DNA from: a virus | Length of the DNA: 64,000 bases | Virus record (IMG/VR): IMGVR_UViG_3300010430_000024 | Location: 1 to 64,000 of that record | Strand: one strand, 5' to 3' | Part shown: one piece after another, positions 12,640 through 56,249 of the stretch | How the letters are laid out: each line of letters opens with the position of its first letter | Position numbering within the stretch: position 1 is the first letter of the stretch | Notes under the pieces: model-generated | What the model saw: only the letters and a program-made list of their open reading frames with translations | Told to the model about the DNA's origin: nothing | Database searches by the model: none | Made by a program: the position numbers and the translations under genes

Positions 12640-13554
12640 TTATGCGCTTCCAGAACTTCCGAATGCGCCTCGGTAGTCAGACCAACCGAACGTGTAGCGT
12701 TCACGCGCTTTGTAACGCATGTTGCCAGTCTCGAAGTCGCCTTCAAGACCACGTTGGATGTTCTTCCTGACCATGTGCTTCAAGCCATCCGGGCAGTCAG
12801 TAATCAAAGTCCACGCACTGGGGTCCGTGAGACGATGATTCTTATGCGATCCACCGGGGATCATGCCCATCTTCTTCACGGCATTGATATCGTTGTCTGC
12901 CGTACCGGGACGGTAAGGAGACATCAACAGCCGCTCAGCGACAAAGCATAGGTCGGTTGGGATGATTAACTTGGTAGCTCGAACAGCGATAGGGATCGAA
13001 CGCTCGTCCACGAACTTGCTGATGGCGATCAGAGCTTCCTCAAGAGAGGTCTCCGACAGGTCAGCCTGTGTCGTAAACGTGTTCGCCTGCGTGCCACCGC
13101 CGAAGAGCGGATGCGCCGTCGAGAACAACTCAACTCCGTCACCGCCCGGATAGGCAGAGTCGTAGCCGTTGTTCAAGGTAGCCGCACCTTTAACTTCCTT
13201 GGTGTGCTGCATTGAGCGTGCAAGTGCCTTGGAGTACTTAGAGCCGAACGATCCATACAGACCATCTTCCTCAGCTTCTTCCGTCAGGGAGAAGGCAAGG
13301 GCAATAGTCTCGTGGACATATCGTGACGTGAATGCTTCGCCGCCCTGATCATAACTGACCGGAGCACCTTCAGGCTTAACTGGAGCACCAGCCAGACCTG
13401 CAAGCAACACATCCTCTTCATACGCTTTAGTGGAATTCTCTACCGCATAGATAGGTCTCCACTCCTGCTCGTACCTACGAAACTCCAGCCCGAAGACGGT
13501 GTTCAAGCCTTCTTGCAAGAGCTTACGAAAACGAGCGCGATTCATGATAGCCAT
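12640..13554 (-). CDS. Major capsid protein (HK97 fold)
   Basis: 304 aa. KLLQEGLNTVFGLE, ETIALAFSLTEEAEEDGLY, ALARSMQHTKEVK and GDFETGNMRYKARERY motifs. Confidence 0.9.
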   Translation of the reverse strand: MAIMNRARFRKLLQEGLNTVFGLEFRRYEQEWRPIYAVENSTKAYEEDVLLAGLAGAPVKPEGAPVSYDQGGEAFTSRYVHETIALAFSLTEEAEEDGLYGSFGSKYSKALARSMQHTKEVKGAATLNNGYDSAYPGGDGVELFSTAHPLFGGGTQANTFTTQADLSETSLEEALIAISKFVDERSIPIAVRATKLIIPTDLCFVAERLLMSPYRPGTADNDINAVKKMGMIPGGSHKNHRLTDPSAWTLITDCPDGLKHMVRKNIQRGLEGDFETGNMRYKARERYTFGWSDYRGAFGSSGSA

Positions 13555-14168: not shown

Positions 14169-14729
14169 TTATTCATCGTCAGCCACCCTAACGGGTTGTA
14201 CCCGTCTTGCTGGGTGGGACACCGATGTTTTATGCTCTGAAATAATCGGATGCCCCGCTATCTGGGCCGACTCAAGGTCATGTTCAACGCTTAGCATCTG
14301 GTTCGCAGTATCGCGCCTGATGGTTTCTTTGCGATTCTCAAGGACACGTGAGTCGATCTCCATCAAGATGAGATCATCCACCACAATCATCCCCTCATTT
14401 GAATTCGCGAAGGTGGCATAAATGCGCCAGTCTTCAGGCAACGAATCAGGTGACCGAGGTCTCCATCCTTCGCGCCATGCACGGTTCAAATTTTTGGGAT
14501 CATCCGCACCGAATAGTGACTTCCTGACCCAGCGTTGAGTCATTCCATCCTGAGCAGGTGGTGCGTCGAGCGAACTCGGTCGCACCCACTGGGCCTCAGT
14601 TTGTTGGTGGGTGGCATCGTACTCCGACATCTCGTCCACACGAGACTCGTGTCCATGGTCAACGCCATGGGTGGTAACAGCTGGCTTAGGTGCTACCTTT
14701 TTGCTTACTTTCTTTTTGCTGGCAGTCAT
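14169..14729 (-). CDS. Conserved head-module protein
   Basis: 186 aa. WVRPSSLDAPPA..G...RWVR...D.KN.....REGW motif; lies between scaffold and capsid. Confidence 0.65.
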   Translation of the reverse strand: MTASKKKVSKKVAPKPAVTTHGVDHGHESRVDEMSEYDATHQQTEAQWVRPSSLDAPPAQDGMTQRWVRKSLFGADDPKNLNRAWREGWRPRSPDSLPEDWRIYATFANSNEGMIVVDDLILMEIDSRVLENRKETIRRDTANQMLSVEHDLESAQIAGHPIISEHKTSVSHPARRVQPVRVADDE

Positions 14730-15781
14730 CGGTTTTCTCCTTGCTCGGCTTCTCGCTTATTACGTGCAAACTCTCTCAAGACCTCTGGGTCGTTCGGGTC
14801 AAGATTAAATTGCCGCATAGTCGCAAAATCCTCCGCATCAAGATTAACCTTACTGCTGCTGGATCGCTGGTGGCGTGTTTCATTGCCGCCGACTGGAGCT
14901 ACAACAGGTTTGCCTCGTCGTCTCTCGGTGTCAGTGTCGCTCTCGGCACCAGCATCCAAATCATCATACAGTTCCGGTGCCTTCTCCTGAATTCGCTTGT
15001 TGAGTTCTTTGAAGTACTCAGGCGTATTAGGATCGTAACCGTCTGCATAAACCTCTTTATCAAGGCGATTGGCAAGACGGGTCTGTCGTTCAAACCCGTC
15101 TTGTTTGTACCAATCACCTTGGTCTTCCATCCACTTCGACGTTTCCGTATCTGTGGCTTTCCGACTCGTTGGTGTAACTCTATCATCAAACGGTTGTACA
15201 TTACCATCTGGTGATAGATTGTCTAGGTTGGTTTCAGCCATCACTTTGTCAGCTTTCAGATCAGTAAGCCGCGTCGTGAGACGCACCTGATCGTCTGTCT
15301 TACCGTCCTCAATAGCTTGTTTGAGATCGGCCTGAGTCTGCGTGATAGCCGAACCAGCCTGTTCGACAGTTCTCTGGAAGGCTTTCTTGTCTCGGTCATG
15401 GGAGTCTTTAGCAAGCCTGTTCGCCTGCTCTTCCCAGTAATCGCCGCGCTGCTTTTCCTTAGCCGTTGCTCGTGTAGCGCGTTGAATCCGAGCCTTCACC
15501 TTCTTCGAGTATCCGTCATCGTCACTGTCACTACTTGCAGTCTGCTTCTTGCTGTCTTGCTTATCGGCTGCTGAATCATCTACTGAGTCATCAACGTCTG
15601 CGGATCGCAATCCATCAAGCTGCTGGCTGTCGTCGTTTACGTCACTAACGTCTGCCGATTGTGCATCGGGAGATAGTTGAATGCCGTCGTCTTTCGTGTC
15701 AGCGTCCAAGTCCACAGTAACAGGTTCTTTCTCCTGCATACCGTGTAAGTCTTCAAAAACTATTTCATTTTCAGTGCCCAT
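14726..15781 (-). CDS. Capsid scaffolding protein
   Basis: 351 aa. Acidic N terminus, YSKKVKARI coiled coil, position after the portal. Confidence 0.7.
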   Translation of the reverse strand: MGTENEIVFEDLHGMQEKEPVTVDLDADTKDDGIQLSPDAQSADVSDVNDDSQQLDGLRSADVDDSVDDSAADKQDSKKQTASSDSDDDGYSKKVKARIQRATRATAKEKQRGDYWEEQANRLAKDSHDRDKKAFQRTVEQAGSAITQTQADLKQAIEDGKTDDQVRLTTRLTDLKADKVMAETNLDNLSPDGNVQPFDDRVTPTSRKATDTETSKWMEDQGDWYKQDGFERQTRLANRLDKEVYADGYDPNTPEYFKELNKRIQEKAPELYDDLDAGAESDTDTERRRGKPVVAPVGGNETRHQRSSSSKVNLDAEDFATMRQFNLDPNDPEVLREFARNKREAEQGENR

Positions 15782-15793: not shown

Positions 15794-16192
15794 CTAAATG
15801 TGTGCGCGGAACTGAGTCGGGTCTTTAACGATAGCCATAACGCCATCGTCATTCATCGATAAGTACTTCACGCCGTTTTTCATGTGGACCTTCTGCCCAC
15901 CGTAAGTGCCAAACACTATCCAGTCACCAACCTTCGGCTTTGGATCAACGTCTGCCAGATTGATACCCGAACGAGTGACAGCCTTGTAGCAAAGATTACC
16001 CATCGCTACGATCTGTCCGACGTACGTCAGGTACTCTTCTGACTCGCGTGCAGTCTCAGCGTAGACAATCCCACCAGCTGATTCCTTTGGTGGCTCGTAC
16101 GGTCTGACAATCAAGCGCCATCCAATCGGTGTGAGCGGCAGCTCTGCCTCGACCTTTGGAGCTACAAAAGAAACCTCACCCATTGTCGTCAC
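15794..16192 (-). CDS. groES: GroES/Cpn10-like co-chaperonin
   Basis: PIGWRLIVRP...SAGGIVY...GQIVAMG...KVGDWIVFGTYGG...MNDDGVMA matches the Cpn10 pattern. Confidence 0.85.
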   Translation of the reverse strand: MTTMGEVSFVAPKVEAELPLTPIGWRLIVRPYEPPKESAGGIVYAETARESEEYLTYVGQIVAMGNLCYKAVTRSGINLADVDPKPKVGDWIVFGTYGGQKVHMKNGVKYLSMNDDGVMAIVKDPTQFRAHI

Positions 16193-16561: not shown

Positions 16562-18994
16562 TTAGGTTTTGGTTGTGCCACTCGGTCGTGCCTTTTTCTG
16601 TGTCGCAGCTTTTGCCGCTGCCAGCTTATCTTCTCTTGCGATCTTTGCTTCGTTAGCTCTTGCTTCACGAGCCTCCTTCCTGTTCGCCATGAAGTCATCG
16701 CGCTGCTCTTTGCTCATCGCAGCAGCCTCTTGACGCTCTATATCTGCGAGGGTGGCTTCATCCTGCCGTGCCATCAATCTGTCGTGGGCATCGTCCAGTC
16801 TCGCCTGCTCGCGTTCATGCACTTCATCGTCAGGGTCCATGCTGTCGTCAGGGTCCATGATCTGTATCTGCGGAACCTGAGCCGCTGCCTGTGCGATCTG
16901 CTGCTCCAGCTCTGGTGGCATTGGCTGCTCTGGACCAAACTGTCCGGGTTGCGGCAACTGGTTACCCAGCATCCGTTGCATTTCCACGAAGTACTTGAAT
17001 GAGTAATGCTGTGCCATGTGCGCCTGCATGATCGGACCCAGCTGCTCCAGTGCCTCTGGTTGCAGACCATTGACAAAGTTCATGTGCACCTTGATGTGTG
17101 CGTCATGGTCTTGGTCGATGAACGGTTGGGCACTCTGCCCTTGCAGCATGTCCATGTTCTCCATCACAGGGTCTTTGCGCTGTGGCTGGTTCTTCTGCAA
17201 CACACCGTCTGGATCAGGGATGCGAATAGCCTTCAGGAAGCGCTCTTCGACCTCCATGCGGTTGTACAGGTCAGGCGCTTGTGTTGCCCTCTCGATGAGA
17301 GCTTGTCCCTGAGCGATCCTCTGAGTGCTTGAGAAGATGTTCGGATCACTGATGGGAATAACATCGACCCTGCCGTCGTAGTCATTACGGAGCACTACAG
17401 ACTCAGGGTCTTCAACCTTGTAAGGGTACTGGTCCGGTAGGAATTCATAGTTTAGCTCAGCACGTAGTTTGAACTCTTCTGCCGCCGCCATATGTAGACG
17501 GCGATGGATGGCAGACAAGGGCTTACTGCCCTGCTCTATGAGTGCGATGGTTGTACCCACCGGACCAGTGTTCGATGCCTCACCTGTCAGCACTTCTGTT
17601 GAGCTGCTGAACGATTTGCCTGCCTCAAGCAGAACCTCGAACAGTTTAGCCAGTGCTGGCGATGGGTCTTTGAATGGTGGCGTGTAGAAGGCGCGTGCCA
17701 ACTCTTCAGCCGACATGTTCACTTCTTTGTACAGTCCCGGCGTGATGTGCTCGTCACCGGGCTTCAGCTTAGCGTCATTGGAGACGTAGCCACCCTGCAT
17801 GTTGGCGAACGCAGCAGAGTCGAGAAGCGCCCTGATGGTCGCTGACGTAGCCTCAGCCACGCTGCCGATGAGGTGCAGCAAACCAAAGCCGTAGAAGCCC
17901 AGACCCGGAAGATATTTGTAGTGCGTGAACCAGATGCGCTTTTGCATCAGCTCGTCATCTTCCCTCCAGTTGCGACGGATGGATAACACCTCACGTGTCT
18001 CACGCTCGATGGTGACGATGTACGGCAGTGGTGACTGCTTGCCGTAGCGCTCTTGGTCAGTATCTACCATCAAGTCGCAGTGACACTCAAGCACGGTGTA
18101 CACGTTGTCATCGGTGTGCGTGTCAGGAGACCGTGAGTCAGCAATGTCCTCATGCTCTCGGATGCGGTCATCACCAGTGTCTGTTGCATACGGTGTCAGG
18201 TCAGGTAGCTCCAGCGCCTCCCAGAACCCTGACTCGAACAGCTTCTTCATCTCTGTCGAGTTCTTGAACATCCGATGCGTGTAGCGTGGTGAACTCGCAA
18301 GGTCGGTGGCGATGTACGGCACGATGAAATCAGACGATGGGATGTAGCGACTCACCACCATGTTGCTGAGGCTGTCCCAGTACGTTTTCTTGAACGCTGA
18401 TCCACCCAGTGGCAGATAGAACAACATCGAATCGACCTGCCAGAAGTAGCTGCGATCCTGATCAAGAATCTGGTAGTTCATGTGGTTCTTGATGCGGTCG
18501 GCTTGATCCTCTGTTTCGCGAGTCATCTCACCCACGACCTTGGTCTTCACTGGTCCTTCTGATGGGAATATCTCTTCGATGGCACGCGCCTGAAATTGCA
18601 CCACAGCTTCACCAATGAGCGGATACGTCACTGCACTGGCACCATCGAATGGCAGCTCTTCACCGGGGATGTTGTTCAGACCCAACAGCTCCATGGCTTG
18701 ATCCATGCGTTGCTCCCAGTCCTTACGAGACTCGATGTCGGTCTCCACCCACTCGATCACATCGTTAGCCAGCTTCTGAAGCTCGGTGCGGGACAAGTCG
18801 TACATGATGTTAGCTGCGTGCTCATCACTGTCGTCTTGCGACATACGGCTCATACCGGGATTGAAGTCTACCGTGGCGCTGTTGCCGCGACGTGTTATCT
18901 GTGCGCCGCCAACCTCACCAGAGAATCCCTCATCAGGCATCTCTGGCATCTCAGGACTACGCCCGTAATCAATATCGTCTGGTCGTGTTGCCAT
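16562..18994 (-). CDS. Portal protein
   Basis: 810 aa. DIESRKDWE, EAVVQFQARA, LPLGGSAFKK, YLPGLGFYGFGLLH and PVGTTIALIE motifs; follows terL. Confidence 0.9.
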   Translation of the reverse strand: MATRPDDIDYGRSPEMPEMPDEGFSGEVGGAQITRRGNSATVDFNPGMSRMSQDDSDEHAANIMYDLSRTELQKLANDVIEWVETDIESRKDWEQRMDQAMELLGLNNIPGEELPFDGASAVTYPLIGEAVVQFQARAIEEIFPSEGPVKTKVVGEMTRETEDQADRIKNHMNYQILDQDRSYFWQVDSMLFYLPLGGSAFKKTYWDSLSNMVVSRYIPSSDFIVPYIATDLASSPRYTHRMFKNSTEMKKLFESGFWEALELPDLTPYATDTGDDRIREHEDIADSRSPDTHTDDNVYTVLECHCDLMVDTDQERYGKQSPLPYIVTIERETREVLSIRRNWREDDELMQKRIWFTHYKYLPGLGFYGFGLLHLIGSVAEATSATIRALLDSAAFANMQGGYVSNDAKLKPGDEHITPGLYKEVNMSAEELARAFYTPPFKDPSPALAKLFEVLLEAGKSFSSSTEVLTGEASNTGPVGTTIALIEQGSKPLSAIHRRLHMAAAEEFKLRAELNYEFLPDQYPYKVEDPESVVLRNDYDGRVDVIPISDPNIFSSTQRIAQGQALIERATQAPDLYNRMEVEERFLKAIRIPDPDGVLQKNQPQRKDPVMENMDMLQGQSAQPFIDQDHDAHIKVHMNFVNGLQPEALEQLGPIMQAHMAQHYSFKYFVEMQRMLGNQLPQPGQFGPEQPMPPELEQQIAQAAAQVPQIQIMDPDDSMDPDDEVHEREQARLDDAHDRLMARQDEATLADIERQEAAAMSKEQRDDFMANRKEAREARANEAKIAREDKLAAAKAATQKKARPSGTTKT

Positions 18995-18996: not shown

Positions 18997-20652
18997 TTAT
19001 CCTCTTTGACCTCCGTACATGCGAACAGGCTTGTTCACATGATTCATCAGGTTGTCGTTGTCATCATCATCGTCCAAGAAGTCAGCACTCCACTTCTTCC
19101 TCAACCACAGCATTGCCATGGTGCAGGTGTCTACCAAGTCGTCATGATCATCTGCCGGGAAGTTACCACACTGGGAAATCACTTCGCTTGCCCAGTTGCG
19201 CTTCACGTAGAAGACGCAACCACGCTCTAACACAAGAGACGCAGCGTGCGCTCGCACGAACTTCGAGTCAGTGACTTTGATTCGCGCTACGGGGAGGTTC
19301 GCACGCCGCATTTCCTGCGCCAAAGAGTGACCGGATGCCTTCTTCTCGATCAGCACCTTATCGGGTTTCCATAGCTCAGCAGCCTGCATTGCATTGTCAC
19401 GCAACTCAGGGAACTCCATGCGTTTGTTCAGTCGCTCCAGCATGATCAGGCACAGTCGTGTCTGTCCTTTGTATTGTGCTGTCCACGGCAACTTCGGATT
19501 GAGCCGCTCTTCGTACTCGAACACGCCCCACGTGGTCCGGGCACTGTAGTCATGCTCTTCATCCTCTTCAAATGCGGTGTCGTATGACTGGATGATCATG
19601 GACAGCTCTGGCAACTCTGGCTCTACCCACTCGCGCCAGTGATGCTCTTTCATGATGTTGCCGCCCTTGGCTGACGGGTTCTGCTGAATCTGTGACTCGA
19701 AGCCTCGCTCGGTCAGCTCCATGGAGAGCTTCGCCATCTCTTCAGGACCGAAGCGATCCTCTTGCAGTAGGTCGTTCTCCACCTTACGTGGATCAGTGAA
19801 GATCAACTGCTCTTTGCGTAGCGGCGCTATGTGATCACCAAAGGTCCAGATTTCAGGATCAGCAGGGATGACTCTCTTGCTCTCCTTCTTCGCCTTGGTG
19901 ATGCAGCGAGTCTTCGGCATGAAGTAACCGGGAAGGTTGAGGTGCACCCACCCACCAGTTGAGAGTACATGCCCCGGAAGGTCTTGGTGATGACCCCGCT
20001 GTGCGATGATCACGCGACCGAGCTTCTTCATGTCGTTGCCACGTGTTGACATGGTGTCTCGCCACCAGTCGATTACGCCTGCGCGGATCGTGTCGGAGTT
20101 GATCTCTTTCATGTTGTGAGCGTCATCCACTACGATGCGATCACCACCCTCACCCGTTGCAGTACCACCTACTGATGTCGCCAGTCGGTAGCCGTAGTAA
20201 TCGTTATCGAACCTGCCCTTCTGGTTGAGGTCGCTCGACAACTGATAGCAATCCCCGAAACGCTCCTGATACCAAGGCGACTGTATTAAGCGGCGACACT
20301 TCACGCTGTCTCGAATCGTCAGGGACGATGCGTACGTTGCAAACAGCCACTGTGTTGATGGGTTCCATGTCCATTCCCAAGCAGGCCACATGACAGCCAC
20401 GACCGTGGACTTCGAGTGTCGTGGTGGGATGTTGATCACGAGGTCATCGATATCACCCAGTGATACATACGTGAGGTGCTCACAGATGGCATCGATGTGC
20501 CAGCCGCTCTTGAATTCCTTGCCCGGTTCAACCACGTGCCATGCTTCAGCGACGAACCTCTTCAGGTCTCGCTTCATCTCTTCAGCCTGTGCCCACGTCC
20601 ACAGTCGTGAGGCTGAGTGCTGGTCTATATCTTGTGGGAGAATTTCAATCAT
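18997..20652 (-). CDS. terL: Terminase large subunit
   Basis: INIPPRHSKS Walker A, IVVDD Walker B, QQNP, SYDTAF and HDDLVD nuclease motifs. Confidence 0.95.
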   Translation of the reverse strand: MIEILPQDIDQHSASRLWTWAQAEEMKRDLKRFVAEAWHVVEPGKEFKSGWHIDAICEHLTYVSLGDIDDLVINIPPRHSKSTVVAVMWPAWEWTWNPSTQWLFATYASSLTIRDSVKCRRLIQSPWYQERFGDCYQLSSDLNQKGRFDNDYYGYRLATSVGGTATGEGGDRIVVDDAHNMKEINSDTIRAGVIDWWRDTMSTRGNDMKKLGRVIIAQRGHHQDLPGHVLSTGGWVHLNLPGYFMPKTRCITKAKKESKRVIPADPEIWTFGDHIAPLRKEQLIFTDPRKVENDLLQEDRFGPEEMAKLSMELTERGFESQIQQNPSAKGGNIMKEHHWREWVEPELPELSMIIQSYDTAFEEDEEHDYSARTTWGVFEYEERLNPKLPWTAQYKGQTRLCLIMLERLNKRMEFPELRDNAMQAAELWKPDKVLIEKKASGHSLAQEMRRANLPVARIKVTDSKFVRAHAASLVLERGCVFYVKRNWASEVISQCGNFPADDHDDLVDTCTMAMLWLRKKWSADFLDDDDDNDNLMNHVNKPVRMYGGQRG

Positions 20653-26728: not shown

Positions 26729-27139
26729 CTACTGACCCCACCTGACTGCTAACGCGATGGCTGCTGCATTGCATCCATAGAGGTGAGCCTTGGTTGGTCC
26801 AGCCTCAGTGCTGATGCTGTAGGTCTCATTGACTCGTGCGTGTTCCATGTTGTTCATAGCAGTGTTGCCCACCACGATCACGATGTCCTCATCCTGTGGT
26901 ATGGCAGACACCGGGTTGTAACCTGTTGGCTCAAGGAAGACTCGTGTACCCGGACCAGCACTAAGCAGTGCCGTCATCATGTTGTCGCACTGCATGAAGG
27001 CGTAGTTATCCATCGACTCAACCACAGGCGTGAAGATGAAGTTGTCAACCTTGAATGATCCCTTCAGTTGTCGCCACAGCTGCCACTCCACTTCAGGTGG
27101 CATCTGCGTGGTCTCCCATCGTGCGACGACCGTGATCAC
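26729..27139 (-). CDS. SPOUT (SpoU/TrmH/TrmL-like) RNA methyltransferase-like protein
   Basis: RVFLEPTG...DIVIVVGN...YSIST...LYGCNAAAIAL resembles the SPOUT trefoil-knot motifs; GTG start. Confidence 0.45.
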   Translation of the reverse strand: MITVVARWETTQMPPEVEWQLWRQLKGSFKVDNFIFTPVVESMDNYAFMQCDNMMTALLSAGPGTRVFLEPTGYNPVSAIPQDEDIVIVVGNTAMNNMEHARVNETYSISTEAGPTKAHLYGCNAAAIALAVRWGQ

Positions 27140-27318
27140 CTATTCAGGTCATCCGACATTGGCTTGCGTGCCTTCGGTCTATTGCGACCGGGATGTGCTC
27201 CACCCGGACCTGAATCACCCGGCTTGCCCGGTGTGGTTATCTTCTTCGGCTTTGTCTTTGCTCGCTCTGGTTTAGCCCAGTCGCGCCGCTGTCTGCTCAT
27301 GTTGCTCATCTGCTGCTC

Positions 27319-27939
27319 CTATGAGTACGACAGGCTTAGCCTGTTGTCCCAGATGTTATCGAAGTTATCGTTGCCATCAGCAAACACGATAGCGATGTCA
27401 CCGTCTGACTGCATGGTCAGTCGTGAGATGCGCCATGATGCTGCTGATGTGAGTACACCGGGGAGTGCGTCACCACGGTAGGTCACCTCTGGAAATACAG
27501 AGGGGTCAATGGTGTCTGATCGAGTTGTTAGTGCCAAGCTGCCCGGACTCCCTTGCAAGACCCATGACCCAGTGACCTTGAGATAGATGTCACCGTTGTC
27601 TGCGTCAGTGTAGACATCTCCATCGCTACCCAGACCAGCGCCCGGTGCGCCGTTGCCAACGTAGTGAGTATTGCCATCAGCGCCGTCCTGACCACTAACT
27701 CCTGCTGGACCAGCCGCACCATCAGCACCATCTTCTCCCTGCTCACCCTGTGGGCCGCGTGGTGGCGTGTCTGATATGAGACCTTCTTCGTACCCTTCCT
27801 CATAGGCTGTCCACGAGCCACGGACCACTGATGCGTCGTAAGGGTTGTCGCGAGGACGACCAAACAAGGCATCGTTGAAGCCGTGGTCGAATGCGATCTT
27901 GCGTTGTCCAGAATATGCCAATGACTGTTCCCAATACAC
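27319..27939 (-). CDS. Collagen-repeat protein with RMF-like N terminus
   Basis: Gly-X-Y run (GPQGEQGEDGADGAAGPAG). N terminus AFDHGFND...DNPY...AYEEGYEEG. C terminus WRISRL...FDNIWDNRLSLSY. Confidence 0.6.
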   Translation of the reverse strand: MYWEQSLAYSGQRKIAFDHGFNDALFGRPRDNPYDASVVRGSWTAYEEGYEEGLISDTPPRGPQGEQGEDGADGAAGPAGVSGQDGADGNTHYVGNGAPGAGLGSDGDVYTDADNGDIYLKVTGSWVLQGSPGSLALTTRSDTIDPSVFPEVTYRGDALPGVLTSAASWRISRLTMQSDGDIAIVFADGNDNFDNIWDNRLSLSYS

Positions 27940-28217
27940 ATAGGGCAGCGGTTAAGCTGCCCCTGTTTGTTTGAGTCGCCACCTGTGGCAGGGACTAGGT
28001 GTTGATGGCTCAGCACCGTGCGCTATTCGTTACTGATTACTGACCGCGCTTGATCGCCATCGTTGTGAATCTTATACCATCAGCTGCTAATCAGCCAGTC
28101 TTCTTCTTTGACTTCTTCTTGGTCTTCTTTTTGGTGGTAGCCGTACCAGCTGATTGCTTAGCACGCAGCTCTTGGAGTTTGCGCCTCTGCGCCATGAAGG
28201 GTGTCTCGCTCATAGTG

Positions 28218-28532
28218 TTAGTTCCATGTGATTAGCCCCTGTCGTAGATCATCGACCTCTTGCGCGGTCAATCCGAATGGTTCAGTTGTATTCCACGAGT
28301 GGTGGCGCAGCTCGAAGTGAGTGCCACAGTTGACGACCATGATGCTGTCACCCTCGTTCGGGCACAGTCGGTACACATCCACAGTGCCCGTCAGCTCATC
28401 GATTCCATCTTTGTTGCTCATGCGGTGCCTCGTCATACTATGCACCCCTGCAACGCCACTGTAACGCTTAGACGGGACAATGCAACTCCATATCGTCTTC
28501 AGTACCAACCTTACACCAACCATTATCTCCAT
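28218..28532 (-). CDS. Hypothetical protein
   Basis: ORF in a coupled string; true start uncertain. Confidence 0.4.
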   Translation of the reverse strand: MEIMVGVRLVLKTIWSCIVPSKRYSGVAGVHSMTRHRMSNKDGIDELTGTVDVYRLCPNEGDSIMVVNCGTHFELRHHSWNTTEPFGLTAQEVDDLRQGLITWN

Positions 28533-29044
28533 CCCTTGAGACCGTCCTCATCTTCTCGTATGCGCTCTCTTGGTGTGTAGGCTGTCGAGTAGTAGTCAGG
28601 CTCGTACACCTTGTCAGCAACGATCACATCATCTCCCAGTGAGTTCACGCAGCTCCAGTACTCACGCTGCTGAGTGCTCTGTGAGCATTGCTGCTCTAAG
28701 GGGCTTTTGGTCCTATCCTGTGCCAGTGTTCCCTCAGTGAGGTGCTCTGGGTTCTCTATACGGTATCCTGATGCCAGTGACACCATGTTAGGTGTGTCTG
28801 CTTGCATAGGGGCTAGGGCTTTACTTGCGTGTCTTGCCAACCAACTGTAGAACTTCTTGATTGTGACCGTCTCATACTCAGGACCAATGTACCTGATGTT
28901 GTTGCCCATGATCTCGAAGATTGATGGACCATAGAACTGCTTGCCACTGGGTATCGAGATCATCTTCTGTCCCGGTATCCACAGTCCAGCTGCGGTCATC
29001 ACACCACCTGCCATCAGTCCCTTCAGTAAGTCTCGTCTGTTCAT
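28523..29044 (-). CDS. Twin-arginine-leader protein carrying a domain similar to the N terminus of the 851-aa protein
   Basis: MNRRDLLKGL leader; PMQADTPN...EHLTEGTL versus PMLPTTPN...EFLKEGTI. Confidence 0.65.
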   Translation of the reverse strand: MNRRDLLKGLMAGGVMTAAGLWIPGQKMISIPSGKQFYGPSIFEIMGNNIRYIGPEYETVTIKKFYSWLARHASKALAPMQADTPNMVSLASGYRIENPEHLTEGTLAQDRTKSPLEQQCSQSTQQREYWSCVNSLGDDVIVADKVYEPDYYSTAYTPRERIREDEDGLKGWR

Positions 29045-29224
29045 TCCATAAATTCCCGGTACATCCTGTCCAGCAACTCCTGATCACTCTCCCTCCAGAT
29101 GAAGGGCTTTGTGTACGGTGCGCCAGTGATCTTGATGTGCATCTCCTTGGCTGTCTCGATCATGGCGTGCTTCATCGCGTCCTTGATCCGCATCTCTTCG
29201 TATCCGTGGTTACCGTTCACCATG

Positions 29225-29467
29225 TTATTCCATCACCCTCATTCCAACTACTTCTCGTGTCTCCATCATGGACTTAGCTAATGCCTTCGCATAGCGGTCG
29301 CTGATATCACCGTACAGACCCTCATCGATCTCTTCCTCGGTGATTGTGTACGCCAGCTTCACGCTTTTACGACCGAACTCTGGGAACTTCGGTGCCAGCT
29401 TTGATGCCATGGCGACCGTGGCAACACCTGCCACCAGTCCCTGCATAAATTTGCGTCTACTTAGCAT
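29225..29467 (-). CDS. Twin-arginine-leader miniprotein carrying a major-capsid fragment
   Basis: MLSRRKFM leader; 20 of 41 residues identical, ungapped, to the capsid protein in this window. Confidence 0.75.
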   Translation of the reverse strand: MLSRRKFMQGLVAGVATVAMASKLAPKFPEFGRKSVKLAYTITEEEIDEGLYGDISDRYAKALAKSMMETREVVGMRVME

Positions 29468-29723
29468 ACGTCCAGTCTTCTGCCATCAGGTCACCCTGAG
29501 ATGCCAGCCACGGCACAATGGTCCCTTGAGCGTTACGGATATCTATGTGTGGCAGGTAATTGATCACAGTGCCCTCTGGGTAGATGCCAAGCAGTGGTGG
29601 TCTGTCCACCGTGAACGTACTGCCCGGCACAAGAAAGATGAACTGGTCTGCACCATTCCATCCCTCTCTGGTCATCCTGTTGCCTTCTTTGATCTCAAAT
29701 AGTGCGTCTGAAAAATCCATCAT
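29457..29723 (-). CDS. DUF2829 / Tad2-like signalling-molecule sponge
   Basis: MDFSDAL..IK.G..MTR.GWNG..QFIFL...VPWLASQGDLMAEDW is the DUF2829 signature. Confidence 0.8.
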   Translation of the reverse strand: MMDFSDALFEIKEGNRMTREGWNGADQFIFLVPGSTFTVDRPPLLGIYPEGTVINYLPHIDIRNAQGTIVPWLASQGDLMAEDWTYAK

Positions 29724-29884
29724 CTTTCTCCACTTTGGTAGCTCTATCAATTACTGCAATCGTCTCTGCTGATATACCACGCATCCTAACGAACTGTGAC
29801 ATCTCCTTGAGTGCTTCGGCCTGTTCCCTAACCAAAGGACGTGAGGCTTTCACCTCATTGCGTAGCTCTCGCTCGCTCATCTTG

Positions 29885-30271
29885 TCAGGGTTCTTCATGC
29901 GCCTCTCTCCTTGCCTCAATCATTGGTCCGATGTTGCCCTTGCCGACGACTTCCGTGTACCGCATAGTCCTCCCCGAAGCGTGATCAAGCACTTCGTTGC
30001 GCTCTGCGTGGTACGTTCGCACTCTTCCTGCATCCTTACGACGCGCATTAGGTCTCTCGTAGTGGGAGAGTAATCGAGCAGCCAGATGATTGAACGCAGT
30101 TCTCTGATTTGTGACACGGCTTTTGCTGGCTGTTCCAATAGCTGTGATACCAGTGTCACGATGCGTGATTCGGCAGCAGTTTTCGTGTTTATTTCTGTGT
30201 TGTCCACCGCTTCCCTCCCCGGAGTACCACTCCAGTTTGAAATCTTTTTTTGTGAGGTGTAGCTCATCCAT
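29885..30271 (-). CDS. Stand-alone GGQ release-factor-domain (peptidyl-tRNA hydrolase-like) protein
   Basis: GSGGQHRNK.ENCCRITH..TGI...SRVTNQ..A and VRTYH...V.DH..G. Confidence 0.85.
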   Translation of the reverse strand: MDELHLTKKDFKLEWYSGEGSGGQHRNKHENCCRITHRDTGITAIGTASKSRVTNQRTAFNHLAARLLSHYERPNARRKDAGRVRTYHAERNEVLDHASGRTMRYTEVVGKGNIGPMIEARREAHEEP

Positions 30272-30678
30272 TAGTCAATCGTCACACTCAGGTCATCAAT
30301 GCCTGCTGGTGCTGCCAGCAGGGTGCCAGTTACCACAGCATCGACTGAGCGCCTGTCTGCTGTGTCCACAACTGTAGCCTTGAACGCATAGGTGCCTGCG
30401 GTTAGGTTGTCCACCACGAACGTCTGAGGGACATCTGAGGCAACTACGACAACAGGGCTATAGTTCGCCCCACCATCAGCACTCATGCTGATCTCAGTTC
30501 CCATGATCTCGCTCACGTCCAATGCTACGCCGTCTTCGCGAGTCGTTGGTAGTGTCCAGTTCAGTGTCGCTCTTCCCATCTCAATCTCCAGTGTCATGTT
30601 ACTGACAGGCATCGGCCTGTCGTTGATAAGTCCCAGCAGCCTCAATAGCCACCGAACAAGTTTTAGCCACCAGCTCAT
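30271..30678 (-). CDS. Fibronectin type III-like protein
   Basis: ATLNWTLPTTREDG...VDNLTAGTYAFKATVVDT...S...APA pattern. Confidence 0.7.
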   Translation of the reverse strand: MSWWLKLVRWLLRLLGLINDRPMPVSNMTLEIEMGRATLNWTLPTTREDGVALDVSEIMGTEISMSADGGANYSPVVVVASDVPQTFVVDNLTAGTYAFKATVVDTADRRSVDAVVTGTLLAAPAGIDDLSVTID

Positions 30679-31229
30679 GCGCAGTCAGCGACTACCAGTG
30701 GCTTGGGTATTACTCCCGATGACCAGCTCACACTGGTTGTCGGAACTGCATATTTTCCATTTACATTCTGGTTGACGATGCACTCAACATCAGCACTGAC
30801 CGTGCCTACTGGCAGCAACCAAAATCCATTCGCAATCGATACAGGCTGGTACACCATCGCACCCATTGCTGCGGTGAACGTGGTGACCGTTTTCTCTGCC
30901 TTGCCTGAAACTCGCGACTCTTCGCCGTCTGTCGTGTACGACGTTGCCACGTACTGGTAATCACCGGGGAGTTTTCCATTTAAGGTCACTGTCGTGGTCG
31001 CTGGATCGTCAATTTCAGCCACTAACTGCCATATTCGGGTGCCAGCCAGAGTGGTCAGCGGTCCAGCATCAGTGCATTGTTCCTGCCCTGTTGGGTTGGT
31101 CCAGTCCAGTATCACGTCATCAGCAAGTGCTTCCTTGACGCAGTACGCAAAATACAACACCACTCCCACGGCAATCAGGGTTGGAAACCATAGGCTGTCG
31201 AAGAACTTTTTCATGAGCTGCACTGGCAC
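30675..31229 (-). CDS. Secreted/membrane-anchored FN3-like protein
   Basis: N-terminal hydrophobic segment, ALA|D cleavage-like site, VILDWTNP and PGDYQYVATSY...ES. Confidence 0.6.
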   Translation of the reverse strand: MPVQLMKKFFDSLWFPTLIAVGVVLYFAYCVKEALADDVILDWTNPTGQEQCTDAGPLTTLAGTRIWQLVAEIDDPATTTVTLNGKLPGDYQYVATSYTTDGEESRVSGKAEKTVTTFTAAMGAMVYQPVSIANGFWLLPVGTVSADVECIVNQNVNGKYAVPTTSVSWSSGVIPKPLVVADCA

Positions 31230-31665
31230 TCATCAATCCTCAGATCGAGGAACACTGCATCCCATGTGGTCACTGGTGTATCGCAGAACTTGTTGTAGCT
31301 GGCTGCTTCGTTGTGTGCCATGAACCACACCATCAACACCAAGAATGAAATCATGCCAGCAAACATCAGCGGCACCAGTATTCTGTCATCACTTAGTCTC
31401 ATTTCGGCACCTCCAAGCACTGAGCCACAAGCGCATACTTGTAGGTCTGTTTCGCCTTCGGGTTTGCTTCAGTCAGGCTCTCTGCTGCTGCCTGACAATC
31501 CTCCATCGTCTTGAAGCCCTCGATCCTCTGTGGATCGGTTACGCCGTTGTTCACCATCACCCAGAACAGCAGTATTACTTTCATCCTCTTCCCCTGTTGA
31601 CAACAGACAGCACTCCGCTTCGTCACATGCGTCACTACACGGAATGCTACCCGTTGCGTAACACA

Positions 31666-32376
31666 TTAGCTGTGATCAGCCTCTGTGGTGTCGCTGTTTA
31701 GGACCACCGAGGATGCAGACTTCAGAGTTTCTTCTGGGTCTACACTGTCAGGGTCCAGTCCAGCATCGTGGTAGAACGACTGTGTTGCTCCTGCTGCCCC
31801 ACCAACGGACGTATTGCAAGCGTACGTCGATGTTGCCTGTGCAAGATTCATCATAGCCGCGCCTCTCAAATTACTTGAGAAGTTCGCCACGTTGCCAATG
31901 CCAAAGTCATAGCCAGCGTTCCACGCTTGTTCACCTTCACCGAGGTATACAAACGTCCAGCCTCTCTTCTTCTCCAGCCTTTTGACCATGTTCTTGATGC
32001 GTTCCTGATTGTATTGACTCGAAGCGTTCTCGTAGCCATCAGTGTGAACAACGAACAGGACCTTAGCTTCTTTCGGAAGACGCTCTTTTGTCTTCTTGAT
32101 CAGCATACCCATTGCGTCGTAAAGCGGAGTACCACCACAAGGCTGGTACTGATCCATCGTCAGCGCGTAGCACTCTTTCACCTTACGGTTTTTGAATACC
32201 TTGCGAAGATATGGAATACCCGGACGTGCATCAAATTTGTAGAGCGAGATAAAGCATCGCTTCGTCTCTTTCTTCAGGTTTGAAACATAGTCGTTGAAGG
32301 AGTCAATCACAGATTTGCGATGACACCCCATGGAACCGCTTTCATCAAGCAGCATTACTACATGCGTTTTTTGCAT
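31666..32376 (-). CDS. von Willebrand factor A domain protein
   Basis: VVMLLDESGSM (MIDAS), GGTPLYDA, TDGYENAS and WTFVYLG. Confidence 0.9.
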   Translation of the reverse strand: MQKTHVVMLLDESGSMGCHRKSVIDSFNDYVSNLKKETKRCFISLYKFDARPGIPYLRKVFKNRKVKECYALTMDQYQPCGGTPLYDAMGMLIKKTKERLPKEAKVLFVVHTDGYENASSQYNQERIKNMVKRLEKKRGWTFVYLGEGEQAWNAGYDFGIGNVANFSSNLRGAAMMNLAQATSTYACNTSVGGAAGATQSFYHDAGLDPDSVDPEETLKSASSVVLNSDTTEADHS

Positions 32377-32931: not shown

Positions 32932-33007
32932 TGGACCCGCTGCCGGGAGTCGAACCCGGTCTCTCCGCTTTGAAAGGCGTTGACACTCCACAGTGCCTTC
33001 AGCGAGT
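32932..33007 (-). tRNA. Atypical tRNA-like gene, Glu(TTC)-like with an 8-nt anticodon loop
   Basis: Acceptor CTCGCTG/CAGCGGG-T-CCA; T arm CCGGG-TTCGACT-CCCGG; D arm GGCACT-GTGG-AGTGTC; anticodon arm CGC-CTTTCAAA-GCG. Confidence 0.65.
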
Positions 33008-34974: not shown

Positions 34975-35214
34975 TTAGTTTGGCACGACTATTCCAGATG
35001 GCTTGTCCTTGACCTGCTCCTTGAGTGCCGCTCTGGCTTCATCCTCGAACGTGCTTCGCAGGATCGTCAGGAACTTGTACACCGTGTACTGAGCCTCGGT
35101 CAGGTCTTCCACGTCCTCTGGTAAAAGCTCTCCCTCTGGTAACCCAAAGTCAGCGCCATACTCCAGAGCGTCCTGCCCCTCTACATCCTTCACCATCAAA
35201 TAACATTCAGCCAC
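34975..35214 (-). CDS. Hypothetical acidic protein
   Basis: 79 aa, overlapping the terS stop. Confidence 0.5.
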   Translation of the reverse strand: MAECYLMVKDVEGQDALEYGADFGLPEGELLPEDVEDLTEAQYTVYKFLTILRSTFEDEARAALKEQVKDKPSGIVVPN

Positions 35215-35824
35215 TCTTCACCTCTTTGTAGTTTCCTTCGATTGGTGTTGGTTCTGACATGACACCAATCACCGCTGTTCGTAATTTGTCCAGCTGGGCT
35301 GGTGAGGCATTCTTGAATGGATTCTGCTGGTTGCCCACCAACTTCAGCTTGTCATCGAAGATGCCGAAGTGTCTGCCCATGTTCTCCAGTGCCTTCGATT
35401 TGTCTGCCAGCACATACGTGTAGTGCTTGACCCAAATCTTCTGCGGCTTGCCGTCCTCAATGATTGTGATGTCGTGCAGGTTGTATGTGACCTTTTCCAC
35501 GATGGCTCGCTGATCGACTGTCAGCTCATCTGGTGATTTATAGACGAACTCTCCGGGGCAATATTCATCTTCCTTCAGGAAGTCCACCCGGTCGGTGAAT
35601 GCAATCTTCGAGAACTCGTTGATAACATCAGCGGCTGACTTCTCCACTCTCTCATTGACTCTTGCCCTGAGCCGTTTGATCTCAGCGACAATCTCAGGAT
35701 CATCCAGTAAACGATATGCACGCTGCGTAGCGTACTTCTCAGAAAACCCTGCCGCCTTCGCCGCCTGAGTCACGTTGGGGTCTTTCGCATAGAACTGGCA
35801 GAACAATAGTCGTCTTGGTGTCAT
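35207..35824 (-). CDS. terS: Terminase small subunit
   Basis: FCQFY...NVTQAAKAAGFSEKYA...AYRLL..PEI, VINEFSKIAF and DKSKALENMGRHFGIF. Confidence 0.9.
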   Translation of the reverse strand: MTPRRLLFCQFYAKDPNVTQAAKAAGFSEKYATQRAYRLLDDPEIVAEIKRLRARVNERVEKSAADVINEFSKIAFTDRVDFLKEDEYCPGEFVYKSPDELTVDQRAIVEKVTYNLHDITIIEDGKPQKIWVKHYTYVLADKSKALENMGRHFGIFDDKLKLVGNQQNPFKNASPAQLDKLRTAVIGVMSEPTPIEGNYKEVKSG

Positions 35825-35895: not shown

Positions 35896-35923
35896 TTGAC
35901 ATTCCTGTGGAAGTGGTTACAAT
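35896..35923 (+). promoter_or_regulatory. Sigma70-type promoter for tRNA-Tyr and the early operon
   Basis: TTGACA-16 nt-TACAAT, 9 nt before the tRNA. Confidence 0.75.
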
Positions 35924-35932: not shown

Positions 35933-36016
35933 GGAAGCGTTGAGCAACTGGTCGCTCAGCAGACTGTAAATCTGTGCCCTCTGGGATTGTAGGTTCGAAC
36001 CCTACCGCTTCCACCA
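35933..36016 (+). tRNA. tRNA-Tyr(GTA)
   Basis: GGAAGCG/CGCTTCC-A-CCA acceptor; GCAGA-CTGTAAA-TCTGT anticodon arm; long variable arm; GTAGG-TTCGAAC-CCTAC. Confidence 0.92.
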
Positions 36017-47535: not shown

Positions 47536-47571
47536 TTTTTGTATGCTCGTGATGGACGAGCCGAACAGGGG
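47536..47571 (+). promoter_or_regulatory. Unit 7: minimal Ro-binding hairpin overlapping the Ro60 ribosome-binding site
   Basis: TTTTGT-ATGCTCGT-GATGG-ACGAGCCGA-ACAGGGG, 6 nt before ATG 47578. Confidence 0.6.
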
Positions 47572-47577
47572 AAAAAG

Positions 47578-49209
47578 ATGGACTATTCAAAGCACGTAAA
47601 TACTCGCGCCACCTCACAGCGTGAGCGCACTCCCGGCAGGACTGATGAAGTCAAGAACAGCGAAGGTGGATTCGTCCATGCTGTTAGTGATTGGGATCGT
47701 CTTGACCGCTTCCTGATTCTGGGTTCTGAAGGTGGAACCTTTTACATCAGCGAGAGCAACCTGACCAAGGACAATGCTGAAGGCACCATCCGACTAATCA
47801 AACAGGATGGACTTCGTGTCGTTAATACGGTTGTCGAAATCTCACAGGCTGGTCGTTCGCATAAGAACGATGCTGCCCTGTTTGTACTCGCTATGTGCGC
47901 GAAGCTGGGCAATGAGCAGACTCGTAAGCTGGCACTTGGCGTATTGCCCAAGGTCGCTCGAACGGGTACTCACTTGTTTCAGTTCGCAACCTTCATTGAA
48001 GCCTTCGGTGGTTGGGGCCGCGCAACTAAGCGTGCCTTCCAGCGTTGGTACAATGAGCGGGACAACGACAAGCTGGCTTACCAGCTGTTGAAGTACCGTC
48101 AGCGTGATGGTTGGACTCACCGTGACATCATGCGTCTGGCTCACCCGGTTACGACCGATGACCAGAAGCGTGCGATGTTCGATGTGACGACTCACCCAGA
48201 GAAGCTGGATAACGTAGACGTTCGTGCCGAGCTGCCTGAGATTTATCAGGGCTATCACATGGCGCGTGACGACATGCCCAGCGCTGACAGGGTTGAGCTT
48301 CTGAAAGACTTCAACCTGTCGTGGGAAATGCTACCGACTGAGTGGCTGAAGGATGAAGCTGTGAACACGCAGCTGCTCCAGAAGATGCCGCTCATGGCTA
48401 CCATTCGTCAGCTCGGTAAGATGACTGCGAACGGTACGCTGAAGCCGATGGACATGAACACCAAGCTGGTGTTGGAGCGTCTGATGGATGACGAGCAGAT
48501 CAAGCGCTCACGCATTCACCCGATGCACTACTTGCTGGCGTTGAAGAACTACTCAGCTGGTCACGGCTTCCGTGGCGGCATGACTTGGAACTCTGACCCA
48601 CGTGTGATCTCTGCACTGGATAAGGGATTCGAGAAGTCGTTCGCGAATGTCGAGCCTACTGGTAAGGCGTTCATGCTCGGTGTCGATGTCTCAAGCTCGA
48701 TGCGATGTGCGGTCTCTGGATCGAACATCAGTTGTGCAGAGGCTGCTGGTGCCATGGCAATGGTGATCGCTCGTACTGAGCCTGTTCACTTCGTCCACGG
48801 CTTTACCAGTGGATCGAGTCGCGGCTACAGCTATCGTCAGTCCAATGTTGAGGGCTTCGTTGATCTCGGCATTGGCTCGAACGACTCAATGGCAAGCGTG
48901 ATGAGTAAGGTGCAGAACCGAAACTTTGGTGGCACCGACTGCGCAGTTCCGATGTTGTACGCCTCGGCAAACAACATCATGGTTGACACCTTCGTGGTGT
49001 TGACTGATTCGGAAACGTGGGCTGGTGACATCAAGCCAGCTCAGGCTTTGCAGTCATACCGTCAGACCCATAACCCGAACGCTAAGCTCGTGGTTGTTGG
49101 CATGACTTCAAATGGATTCAGCATTGCTGATCCGAACGATGCTGGCATGTTGGATGTGGTCGGCTTCGACGCTAACGTACTCCCCGTTATCGCGGAGTTC
49201 AGTAGATAA
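47578..49209 (+). CDS. rsr: Ro60 / Rsr (TROVE + vWA) RNA-binding protein
   Basis: NSEGGF...RLDRFLILGSEGGTFY, GWGR...WY, KYRQRDGWTHRD..RLAHP, IHP, DVSSSM, GGTDCA.PM, TDSETW and SIADPNDAGMLDVVGFD. Confidence 0.96.
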   Translation: MDYSKHVNTRATSQRERTPGRTDEVKNSEGGFVHAVSDWDRLDRFLILGSEGGTFYISESNLTKDNAEGTIRLIKQDGLRVVNTVVEISQAGRSHKNDAALFVLAMCAKLGNEQTRKLALGVLPKVARTGTHLFQFATFIEAFGGWGRATKRAFQRWYNERDNDKLAYQLLKYRQRDGWTHRDIMRLAHPVTTDDQKRAMFDVTTHPEKLDNVDVRAELPEIYQGYHMARDDMPSADRVELLKDFNLSWEMLPTEWLKDEAVNTQLLQKMPLMATIRQLGKMTANGTLKPMDMNTKLVLERLMDDEQIKRSRIHPMHYLLALKNYSAGHGFRGGMTWNSDPRVISALDKGFEKSFANVEPTGKAFMLGVDVSSSMRCAVSGSNISCAEAAGAMAMVIARTEPVHFVHGFTSGSSRGYSYRQSNVEGFVDLGIGSNDSMASVMSKVQNRNFGGTDCAVPMLYASANNIMVDTFVVLTDSETWAGDIKPAQALQSYRQTHNPNAKLVVVGMTSNGFSIADPNDAGMLDVVGFDANVLPVIAEFSR

Positions 49210-55350: not shown

Positions 55351-55677
55351 CTACTGAGGAACTTCAGCGGGTGCCGTCAGTTCACCAGCATCAGCCTTGT
55401 CATTGTTAGCCTGATCCAGAGCGTCGTACAGGTCGAAGATCAGGTCGAACAGGTCATCGACCGTGAATTCCTCATCAAGCCCAGCAGGGTAGGCTACAGG
55501 GGCTGTCAGGTTAGCTGGCAGTTCCTTGTAGACCTCGACCTGTTCAATTACTGTCTGCGTCTCCGTTACTACCCGGACCTCTGGATCGCTGGCGCAGCTG
55601 GTCAGCAGTAGCGGGACAGAAAAAATCAACCCGCAAACCAGCAAGGTCCTTGCAGTCAGCATTCTCATCTTGTTCAT
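55351..55677 (-). CDS. o-spanin (Rz1-like) lipoprotein
   Basis: Lipobox LTSC; Pro-containing segment; overlaps the i-spanin 3' end. Confidence 0.75.
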   Translation of the reverse strand: MNKMRMLTARTLLVCGLIFSVPLLLTSCASDPEVRVVTETQTVIEQVEVYKELPANLTAPVAYPAGLDEEFTVDDLFDLIFDLYDALDQANNDKADAGELTAPAEVPQ

Positions 55678-55984
55678 CTTCTCTTGCTTCCCTTAGTATG
55701 TCGTTCTCTGCTCTCGCTGCCAGTAGGTCTGCCTCGCGTTCAACCAGTATCCTCTCGCGCTTCACTGTGTCTACACGTCGATCTTCAATCATGATGTCAA
55801 TGCGTTTTCGCAAACTATTGATCGTGACCAAGTTCGTTTTGTTTGCGTCAGCAGCCTCGATGGTCTCTGCTGCCTGAGCCTCCAGCTTGGCTTCCAGCTC
55901 ACCGTTGCGGGTAATGGATGACTTCAGCTGCCACCCCATAACAATGATCACCAGAGCAGCCCCACCAAGTACGTATGGATTCAT
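55544..55984 (-). CDS. i-spanin (Rz-like)
   Basis: N-terminal TM segment, coiled coil, C-terminal Cys. Confidence 0.75.
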   Translation of the reverse strand: MNPYVLGGAALVIIVMGWQLKSSITRNGELEAKLEAQAAETIEAADANKTNLVTINSLRKRIDIMIEDRRVDTVKRERILVEREADLLAARAENDILREAREDEQDENADCKDLAGLRVDFFCPATADQLRQRSRGPGSNGDADSN

Positions 55985-56232
55985 GGGATAACCTCGTGTT
56001 CTCTTTTCTCAAGCAAAGAAACCCGATCCTGCAAGTCACCAAGCTGGCGAGCAAGGTCGCTATGAATCAGCATCGGCTCTTCAGCTGCTGCCTTCAGGTA
56101 CGCAAGCTCTACTCGCATCTCAGCCACAGCCACAGCTGTACTCTGGGTGGTGTTACCAACCCACAGCAACAAAGCAACCAGCAGTAACACAAGTACTGTC
56201 TGTGCGTGTCGTTCAAGTACATTCGATGGCAT
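55981..56232 (-). CDS. Membrane protein of the lysis cassette
   Basis: One TM segment (VLVLLLVALLLWV) plus coiled coil. Confidence 0.55.
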   Translation of the reverse strand: MPSNVLERHAQTVLVLLLVALLLWVGNTTQSTAVAVAEMRVELAYLKAAAEEPMLIHSDLARQLGDLQDRVSLLEKREHEVIP

Positions 56233-56249
56233 ACTCACATTATCACCAC

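Follow-up and report, generated by a model that had tools for sequence, protein, structure and literature searches.

A family of phage miniproteins that pairs a predicted twin-arginine leader with segments related to the major capsid protein

The Gol peptide of T4 gp23 is sensed by the bacterial protein Lit, and CapRel senses the major capsid protein (MCP). Among the cos-type PICIs, Ccm is a satellite capsid-protein homologue that redirects assembly of the helper capsid. Imm and Sp of phage T4 are superinfection-exclusion proteins of the periplasm or membrane. We know of no superinfection-exclusion protein that derives from a capsid protein or that uses the twin-arginine (Tat) pathway. Sensing of phage capsids has been reported for Thoeris TIR proteins (PMC12578639), and binding of MCPs for Avs proteins (10.64898/2026.01.04.697583). 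A literature search that took in articles without their supplements found no description of capsid fragments behind a Tat leader. Here we describe a small phage gene whose product appears to have this structure.

The DNA analysed (the window) covers 64 kb of a virus record that is 73.6 kb long and rated complete, and it is laid out like the genome of a tailed phage. The genes for the small terminase (TerS, 35207–35824) and large terminase (TerL, 18997–20652) are on the minus strand and are separated by a block of small accessory genes on the same strand at about 35–28 kb. The structural block, also on the minus strand, contains the genes for the portal (16562–18994) and the MCP (12640–13554) together with scaffold-like genes, among them the scaffold gene at 14726–15781. 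A gene for a GroES-like co-chaperonin (15794–16192, minus strand; phrog_3188, E 3e-15) lies between the portal and scaffold genes, a position that recalls phages whose capsid protein requires help from a chaperonin. Replication genes occupy 36–55 kb. They are followed by a lysis cassette (55351–56970) with an endolysin and an Rz/Rz1-like spanin, and the host is therefore diderm. A scan of genome contigs found no relative, so that prophages gave no clue to the host.

Other features of the window are noted here for completeness. Two giant ORFs run off its ends (3–4577 and 56973–63998, both minus strand), with coding capacity for over 1525 and over 2341 aa, respectively; at the matching place the relative G001 has a 3942-aa ORF, which may encode a virion protein. 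A phage-encoded Ro60 homologue is present on the plus strand (47539–49209; TROVE and Ro60 vWA domains, E 7e-39 and 6e-60), and a search for a Y-RNA-like Rfam match found none anywhere in the window. A tRNA-Tyr gene (35933–36016, plus strand) adjoins a near-consensus sigma-70-like promoter (35896–35923). An odd tRNA-like element with a two-base anticodon (32932–33006, minus strand) was called by ARAGORN and was not confirmed by Rfam.

The miniprotein gene (29225–29467, minus strand) is located within the accessory block and consists of an ATG start, 80 codons in all and a TAA stop. The record's own gene call (P0001) begins at Met8 and gives a product of 73 aa. We favour the longer start because RRKF is in frame in all seven aligned loci and because nowhere in the gene is constraint stronger than in the leader codons.

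Most of the miniprotein resembles the MCP encoded elsewhere in the same genome. The MCP is a 304-aa protein that scored 44.4 bits with Pfam Phage_capsid_4 (cut-off 27) and also matched phrog_371 ('major head protein'), and its AlphaFold2 model (pLDDT 85.9) had HK97-fold phage capsids and encapsulins as its best PDB matches. Residues 33–79 of the miniprotein (29231–29371, minus strand) correspond to MCP residues 81–127 (13174–13314, minus strand), a stretch that in the AlphaFold2 model comprises P-domain strand 82–90, a short helix at 92–96 and spine helix 100–128. This correspondence was seen with an MCP HMM (iE 3e-16), BLASTP (E 7e-13), hhalign and a search of the phage's own genome. The initial annotation had reported a gap-free alignment over 41 residues with 20 identities, and this was exact (miniprotein 35–75 against MCP 83–123). 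The similarity is far beyond chance: the Smith-Waterman score was 117, compared with a mean of 27.9 for shuffled sequences (sd 4.5, maximum 56), and was reached by none of 2000 shuffles. When alignments of the miniprotein and MCP families were compared using hhalign, the probability was 99.3% (E 1.1e-20); miniprotein residues 30–80 were placed on the MCP from residue 78 onwards, and the match extended to MCP residue 146 through the longer C-termini of other members.

A search of the whole record with the miniprotein matched only its own ORF and the MCP, and an all-against-all BLAST of 806 frames in the window gave no further paralogous pair except for an internal repeat in the giant ORF region. 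At the DNA level, only 64 of 123 bases are identical between the two stretches. The relationship is therefore old and visible at the protein level. A complete HK97 fold (N-arm, E-loop, P-domain and A-domain) needs about 280–400 aa, of which the miniprotein covers the equivalent of MCP 81–127 only. Searches of Pfam, PHROGs and NCBIfam found no family covering the passenger, and no capsid family was called. Judged by its sequence, the miniprotein derives from a capsid protein but is not one.

The MCP-like segment is preceded by a leader (residues 1–21; 29405–29467, minus strand) that resembles a Tat-type signal peptide. Residues 3–9 read S-R-R-K-F-M-Q, including the SRRKF motif, and lie close to the Tat consensus (S/T)RRxFLK. 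The h-region is rich in Gly, Ala, Val and Thr, with an uncharged stretch of 16 residues and a mean hydropathy of 1.52. In the c-region, A-M-A at positions 19–21 (−3 to −1) forms an AxA before Ser22, so that a small-x-small cleavage motif is present, followed by Ser-Lys. The NCBIfam model TIGR01409 scored the leader at 18.4 bits, above its cut-off of 16.7, and Pfam TAT_signal (PF10518) scored it at 17.0 bits, below its cut-off of 22.7. Five leaders were scored with TIGR01409: that of the miniprotein and that in L011 (17.1 bits) were above the cut-off, and the remaining three (P0005, L003 and the 173-aa protein described below) were beneath it. Residues 1–21 match a Tat-type signal peptide, and export is predicted. 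Modelled alone with AlphaFold2 (pLDDT 56), the miniprotein formed a leader helix (residues 4–23) and a second helix at the C-terminus, with disorder between the two. Descent of the leader from the MCP N-arm was considered and rejected, as neither hhalign nor the MCP HMM aligned the leader. No phage-encoded TatA-like protein was found among the window ORFs that were scanned with Pfam (15 + 48 ORFs).

A word-indexed search found 11 close homologues of the miniprotein, 74–102 aa in length and 58–76% identical, among which the leader and the next few residues hardly vary. A profile built from 16 members was then compared with 1.84 billion representatives, giving 332 matches at E ≤ 1e-3. Among the best 150 of these 332, there were 54 short RR-leader proteins of 67–221 aa, 23 MCP-sized proteins and 69 other short or intermediate sequences, the latter being mostly MCP fragments with a few miniproteins that are late-start or possibly leaderless. 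The other four of the best 150 (P0019, P0034, P0038 and P0049) are giant repeat proteins and were rejected as chance matches to a short repeat motif. A further 19 RR-leader ORFs were found in 16 loci. The anatomy given in the initial annotation, a twin-arginine-like leader joined to an MCP fragment, is therefore borne out and is common to the whole family. No leader is apparent in a few short proteins with MCP segments (P0107, P0117, P0123 and P0144); if these are not genuinely leaderless, their starts have been called too late. Several miniproteins (P0020, P0043–P0048, P0159, L048 2153–2479 and L058 5442–5768) end in a conserved stretch of about 17 residues that is rich in Gly and Arg, which may serve in sorting or may result from reading through a structured DNA element.

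The distribution of the family is patchy. It is present in three genomes (G000, G001 and G002) and absent from two complete relatives (G003 and G004), and none of five cultured phages with a related MCP has it. A tblastn search of 50,697 phage records with three miniproteins found MCP genes only, and megablast of positions 27000–32000 against phages gave no match. By this comparison of genomes, the miniprotein family is accessory.

The selection acting on the gene was estimated from the seven loci for which DNA was available. The pN/pS ratio ranged from 0.32 to 0.61 and was below 1 in all 21 pairs, 20 of which are near saturation for synonymous differences. When the gene was divided, the ratio was 0.09–0.41 for the leader compared with 0.33–0.65 for the rest. 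A search of sequencing runs for expression listed no RNA run and gave small shares in DNA runs. The pN/pS values bear on a possibility that had been raised at the outset, namely that the gene is a decaying partial duplicate of the MCP gene without function. That the gene is short and lacks a strong ribosome-binding site would agree with decay, but conserved homologues exist, length and sequence are maintained across many clusters, the leader is invariant and pN/pS never reaches 1. A decaying duplicate is thus contradicted, and we consider it barely credible. The sequence comparisons instead indicate a functional accessory gene under purifying selection.

The leaders of 66 RR-leader proteins were compared. 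The twin arginines are present in 66 of 66, partly because the set was picked by a regular expression, which also admitted KR; both arginines are likewise invariant in an alignment of 32 diverse family members. After the arginines, F is present at +3 in 61 of 66, L or I at +4 in 61 of 66 and K, Q or R at +5 in 53 of 66. The resulting logo is (N/T/S/D)RRxF(L/I)(K/Q/R)G, followed by 12–25 uncharged residues with a median hydropathy of 1.8. One subfamily has an unusually conserved stretch just after the h-region. A conserved N-terminal cassette with variable cargo is also what would be expected if the leader were a segment for virion incorporation or membrane insertion rather than a Tat signal, and the miniproteins were internal head proteins packaged through docking of their MCP-like parts. 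The capsid-targeting sequences of T4 internal proteins have the same layout. However, the close agreement with the Tat consensus at six consecutive positions in 66 proteins, the h-region and basic c-region that accompany it, and the TIGR01409 score above cut-off for the miniprotein all argue against packaging, which we regard as very improbable.

To define the cargo, an HMM of 25 MCPs was mapped onto the RR-leader proteins. The spine-helix core was carried by 64 of 66, partly because the search profile was itself anchored on the spine helix. Miniproteins of the window type have the spine helix and the preceding P-domain strand. Others add the tip of the E-loop (MCP about 51–72), the C-terminal P-domain strand (about 272–300) or the A-domain entry motif (about 129–157). 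At least two significant MCP segments were found in 11 of the 66 proteins, and in 7 of these 11 the segments are not collinear with the MCP. A second type of miniprotein has no spine helix and consists of A-domain, E-loop, A-domain-helix and N-arm motifs strung together with almost no spacing (L058 1375–1872 and L029 1109–1483). All eight of the mosaics tested outscored 300 of 300 shuffles of their own cargo. Paired RR-leader miniproteins are found side by side in L025 and L029, and two occur in one locus in L058. The family is a large one in phages, in which a Tat-type leader is combined with variable, sometimes re-ordered, sets of conserved elements of the MCP lineage.

Two side observations concern RMF-like sequences. 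In L003 (4143–4472 and 5951–6289), an RMF-like small protein ends with a P-strand motif of roughly 12 residues that is also found in the miniprotein of that contig. A collagen-repeat protein in the window (27319–27939) has a weak RMF-like N-terminus.

The N-arm, E-loop, P-domain strand and spine helix are the contact-forming parts of HK97-fold shells, and these are the elements that were mapped on the MCP model. Such a mimic might use interface elements to bind unassembled MCP, of its own phage or of a co-infecting relative, and either poison the assembly of a competitor or couple the level of free MCP to the timing of lysis; the adjacent miniproteins in L025 and L029, which have complementary sets of elements, would be in keeping with this. 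On the other hand, the phage's own MCP has the same motifs, so that self-poisoning would be expected, the lysis cassette is elsewhere (55351–56970) and there is no link of the miniproteins to holins. We consider such a regulator of assembly or lysis improbable.

We asked how closely each miniprotein resembles the MCP of its own phage. When MCPs were ranked by resemblance to a miniprotein, the MCP of the same phage was 38th of 68 in one case and 49th of 67 in another. The idea that miniproteins track their own MCP was therefore rejected; as the own MCP is no closer than others, the miniproteins keep residues that are conserved across the whole MCP lineage.

The genes around the miniprotein gene also encode proteins with N-terminal leaders or hydrophobic segments. 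One base after the miniprotein gene is an ORF of 60 aa (29041–29223, minus strand) without a family match, which is missing at this place in L007 and L009. Its stop overlaps the start of a gene for a second RR-leader protein of 173 aa (28523–29044, minus strand), whose scores of 19.9 bits for Pfam TAT_signal and 14.0 bits for TIGR01409 are both below cut-off. The miniprotein and the 173-aa protein have the only RR leaders of this type in the window. In L007 and L009 the 173-aa gene directly follows that for the miniprotein, so that with the window this arrangement is seen in 3 of 17 miniprotein-bearing places. The 173-aa protein has a family of 25 other clusters. Its leader cassette (the RR motif, the h-region and the conserved stretch after it) recurs with 63–82% identity on unrelated cargo (P0185–P0188), and in P0031 the h-region of this cassette is joined to an MCP segment. 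The cassette and its variable cargo have, on these alignments, the structure of a polymorphic leader-cargo system.

Further searches with the 173-aa protein yielded little. One homologue is labelled by its source as coming from a Planctomycetota MAG, which is a lead only, and an Atlas search gave low-score leads only, the best at 0.85. The possibility that the 173-aa protein, or a 204-aa RR protein in L059, is a mosaic of other virion proteins was rejected, the similarity being not above noise.

A third family of RR-leader proteins, 149–233 aa in length, is encoded in the TerS-TerL island of other loci (L025 1889–2491, L026 2529–2975, L027 7912–8610 and L059 7866–8477). The leaders of this family are closely like that of the miniprotein, and the cargo has no family match and does not resemble virion proteins. 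Three RR-leader frames are present in G002. Upstream of the miniprotein gene in the window, two ORFs with N-terminal hydrophobic segments (30271–31229, minus strand) have a weak PKD/fn3-like signature (PKD E 0.0027, below cut-off), and homologues of these ORFs precede the miniprotein gene in L007. In related loci there are fn3 proteins with signal peptides, and fn3 is above cut-off in L025 and L058. As far as these predictions go, the genomic setting of the miniprotein is envelope-directed. The same accessory block includes an RF-1 domain protein of the peptidyl-tRNA hydrolase/ArfB-like type (29885–30271, minus strand; PF00472, E 8e-15), possibly a gene for ribosome rescue or counter-defence. 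A terminator-like hairpin (27942–27963, minus strand), recognized by match to consensus only, lies downstream of the co-directional block of small genes.

This setting makes it conceivable that the capsid origin is only historical, a piece of MCP having been exapted as a small helix-forming unit for work in the periplasm or membrane that has nothing to do with capsids, for example remodelling the envelope or masking a receptor. Cargo unrelated to virion proteins is found behind the same leader cassettes, and the island encodes other predicted exported proteins. An old origin would also fit the tree of 54 shared columns, where the miniproteins are mostly split from the MCPs: one side of the best split holds 66 of 68 MCPs and 3 of 46 miniproteins (support 0.79). 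Two properties of the cargo speak against a purely historical origin. Different members hold different MCP elements (E-loop, N-arm, C-terminal strand and A-domain motifs), and MCP pieces have therefore been captured, or retained, repeatedly. Furthermore, the residues that are conserved in miniproteins coincide with those conserved in MCPs. We thus regard exaptation as rather unlikely.

Immediately upstream of the miniprotein gene is a Tad2-like gene with a Thoeris anti-defence 2-like domain (29457–29750, minus strand; PF11195, E 9.9e-23). Its stop codon is 8 bases past the miniprotein ATG, which lies inside the end of the Tad2-like gene to give an 11-base overlap; the domain itself belongs to the upstream gene and is absent from the miniprotein. 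The coupling of the two genes that had been inferred initially is thus real in the window, but it is not conserved. A Tad2-like gene is near the miniprotein in 4 of 17 miniprotein-bearing places (the window, L009, L010 and L011) and in varying positions, although many of the contigs are short and gene absences carry little weight.

The association with a putative anti-Thoeris gene is one of several observations that would suit a capsid-epitope decoy of the kind put forward in the initial annotation, acting in the cytoplasm. The MCP motifs would occupy a capsid sensor and the Tat leader would tether the complex to the membrane, or export it by hitch-hiking, silencing the sensor. Tat substrates are completed in the cytoplasm, and hitch-hiking of a partner is known for Tat. 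The motifs carried are those most conserved among MCPs, in the form of linear pieces that can be re-ordered, and they are closer to the family consensus than to the MCP of the same phage, as would be expected of something aimed at a pattern-recognition receptor. That members differ in their sets of these motifs, some of them scrambled, makes a decoy or an assembly inhibitor indirectly more plausible. Recognition of capsids by Thoeris TIR proteins (PMC12578639) and by Avs proteins (10.64898/2026.01.04.697583), as reported, would also be in keeping with a decoy. Against this, one would expect a sensor to be triggered by a peptide bound to it, export takes the decoy away from the site at which known sensors work, these uncultured hosts have no known sensor of this type and the Tad2 association is limited to the 4 places. 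As none of the selected family members lacks the leader, Tat targeting looks integral to the miniproteins, and such a leader fits a purely cytoplasmic decoy poorly. We consider a cytoplasmic decoy doubtful.

The reading that we tentatively favour, as quite possible rather than probable, is that the miniprotein would be a Tat-targeted mimic of the capsid protein acting at or beyond the inner membrane. The product would be a pre-protein that starts with the Tat signal peptide (residues 1–21), continues into a short disordered linker and ends in 47 residues copied from the MCP, namely the P-domain strand, the short helix and the spine helix. This pre-protein would be made in the cytoplasm and delivered post-translationally by its leader to the host Tat translocase, and would then be released into the periplasm or stay anchored to the inner membrane on the periplasmic face. 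In that compartment the capsid-derived part, for which no independent fold is predicted, would imitate conserved contact elements of the MCP and occupy a partner that normally recognizes them. Both export and mimicry as a function are what we infer from the sequence.

For such a mimic we weakly prefer a protein of incoming related virions as the target, which would result in superinfection exclusion. Capsid shells are not known to enter the periplasm, so that any partner of an MCP mimic there is hypothetical. Lytic phages usually express their exclusion genes early, whereas the miniprotein gene shares its strand with the structural genes; it may therefore be expressed late, which counts against exclusion. 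A broader possibility, which we rate as speculative and on the unlikely side, is that the polymorphic, Tat-routed arrays of MCP 'epitopes' are decoys in an arms race over capsid recognition, either neutralizing or evicting host sensors or capturing the capsid-binding proteins of rival virions in the envelope.

If capsid mimicry is true, these proteins would be the first virus-encoded exported mimics of a virus's own shell, and would show phages sending an entire group of small polymorphic effectors through the Tat pathway of the host. If the epitope-decoy reading is true, self-mimicry combined with a host export route would be a new principle of viral counter-defence. The family would also help to find out which conserved features of a capsid are 'seen' by other proteins, such as sensors of the host, proteins of rival phages or partners in assembly, as evolution has already cut the MCP into the relevant pieces. 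Even if the capsid origin is incidental, the layout of a leader cassette with variable cargo would define envelope effectors of a kind not yet studied, encoded by aquatic phages that are abundant but uncultured.

Of the known systems, bacterial Tat signals (TIGR01409/PF10518) are the closest to the leader: both have an (S/T/N)RRxF(L/I)K-type motif, a weakly hydrophobic h-region of 12–25 residues and a basic residue after it. The miniprotein differs in being phage-encoded and in having as its passenger a capsid fragment of roughly 59 residues rather than a cofactor enzyme, and its export is predicted only. The capsid peptides involved in defence (Gol/Lit, CapRel, Thoeris TIR and Avs) are similar to the cargo in that short conserved parts of an HK97-fold MCP are, or may be, the unit that is recognized. 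The corresponding systems, however, sense the real capsid protein in the cytoplasm, whereas the miniprotein pieces are encoded separately behind a predicted export signal.

Satellite capsid homologues of the Ccm type likewise provide a second MCP-derived product that could engage capsid contacts, but they have a full-length HK97 fold and co-assemble in the cytoplasm, whereas the miniproteins are pieces of 20–60 residues without the fold and with a Tat leader. Exclusion proteins of the T4 Imm/Sp type are, like the miniproteins, small envelope-aimed accessory proteins of phages that are non-essential and patchily distributed; there is no sequence relation between the two. Finally, polymorphic effectors share the organization of a conserved N-terminal trafficking part and a variable C-terminal cargo, an organization also evident from the swap of leader and cargo in P0031. 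In contrast to these effectors, the RR-leader proteins are very small and phage-encoded, and one of their classes of cargo is a mosaic of capsid motifs. The miniprotein family therefore shares one feature with each of the nearest known ideas and differs from each of them otherwise.
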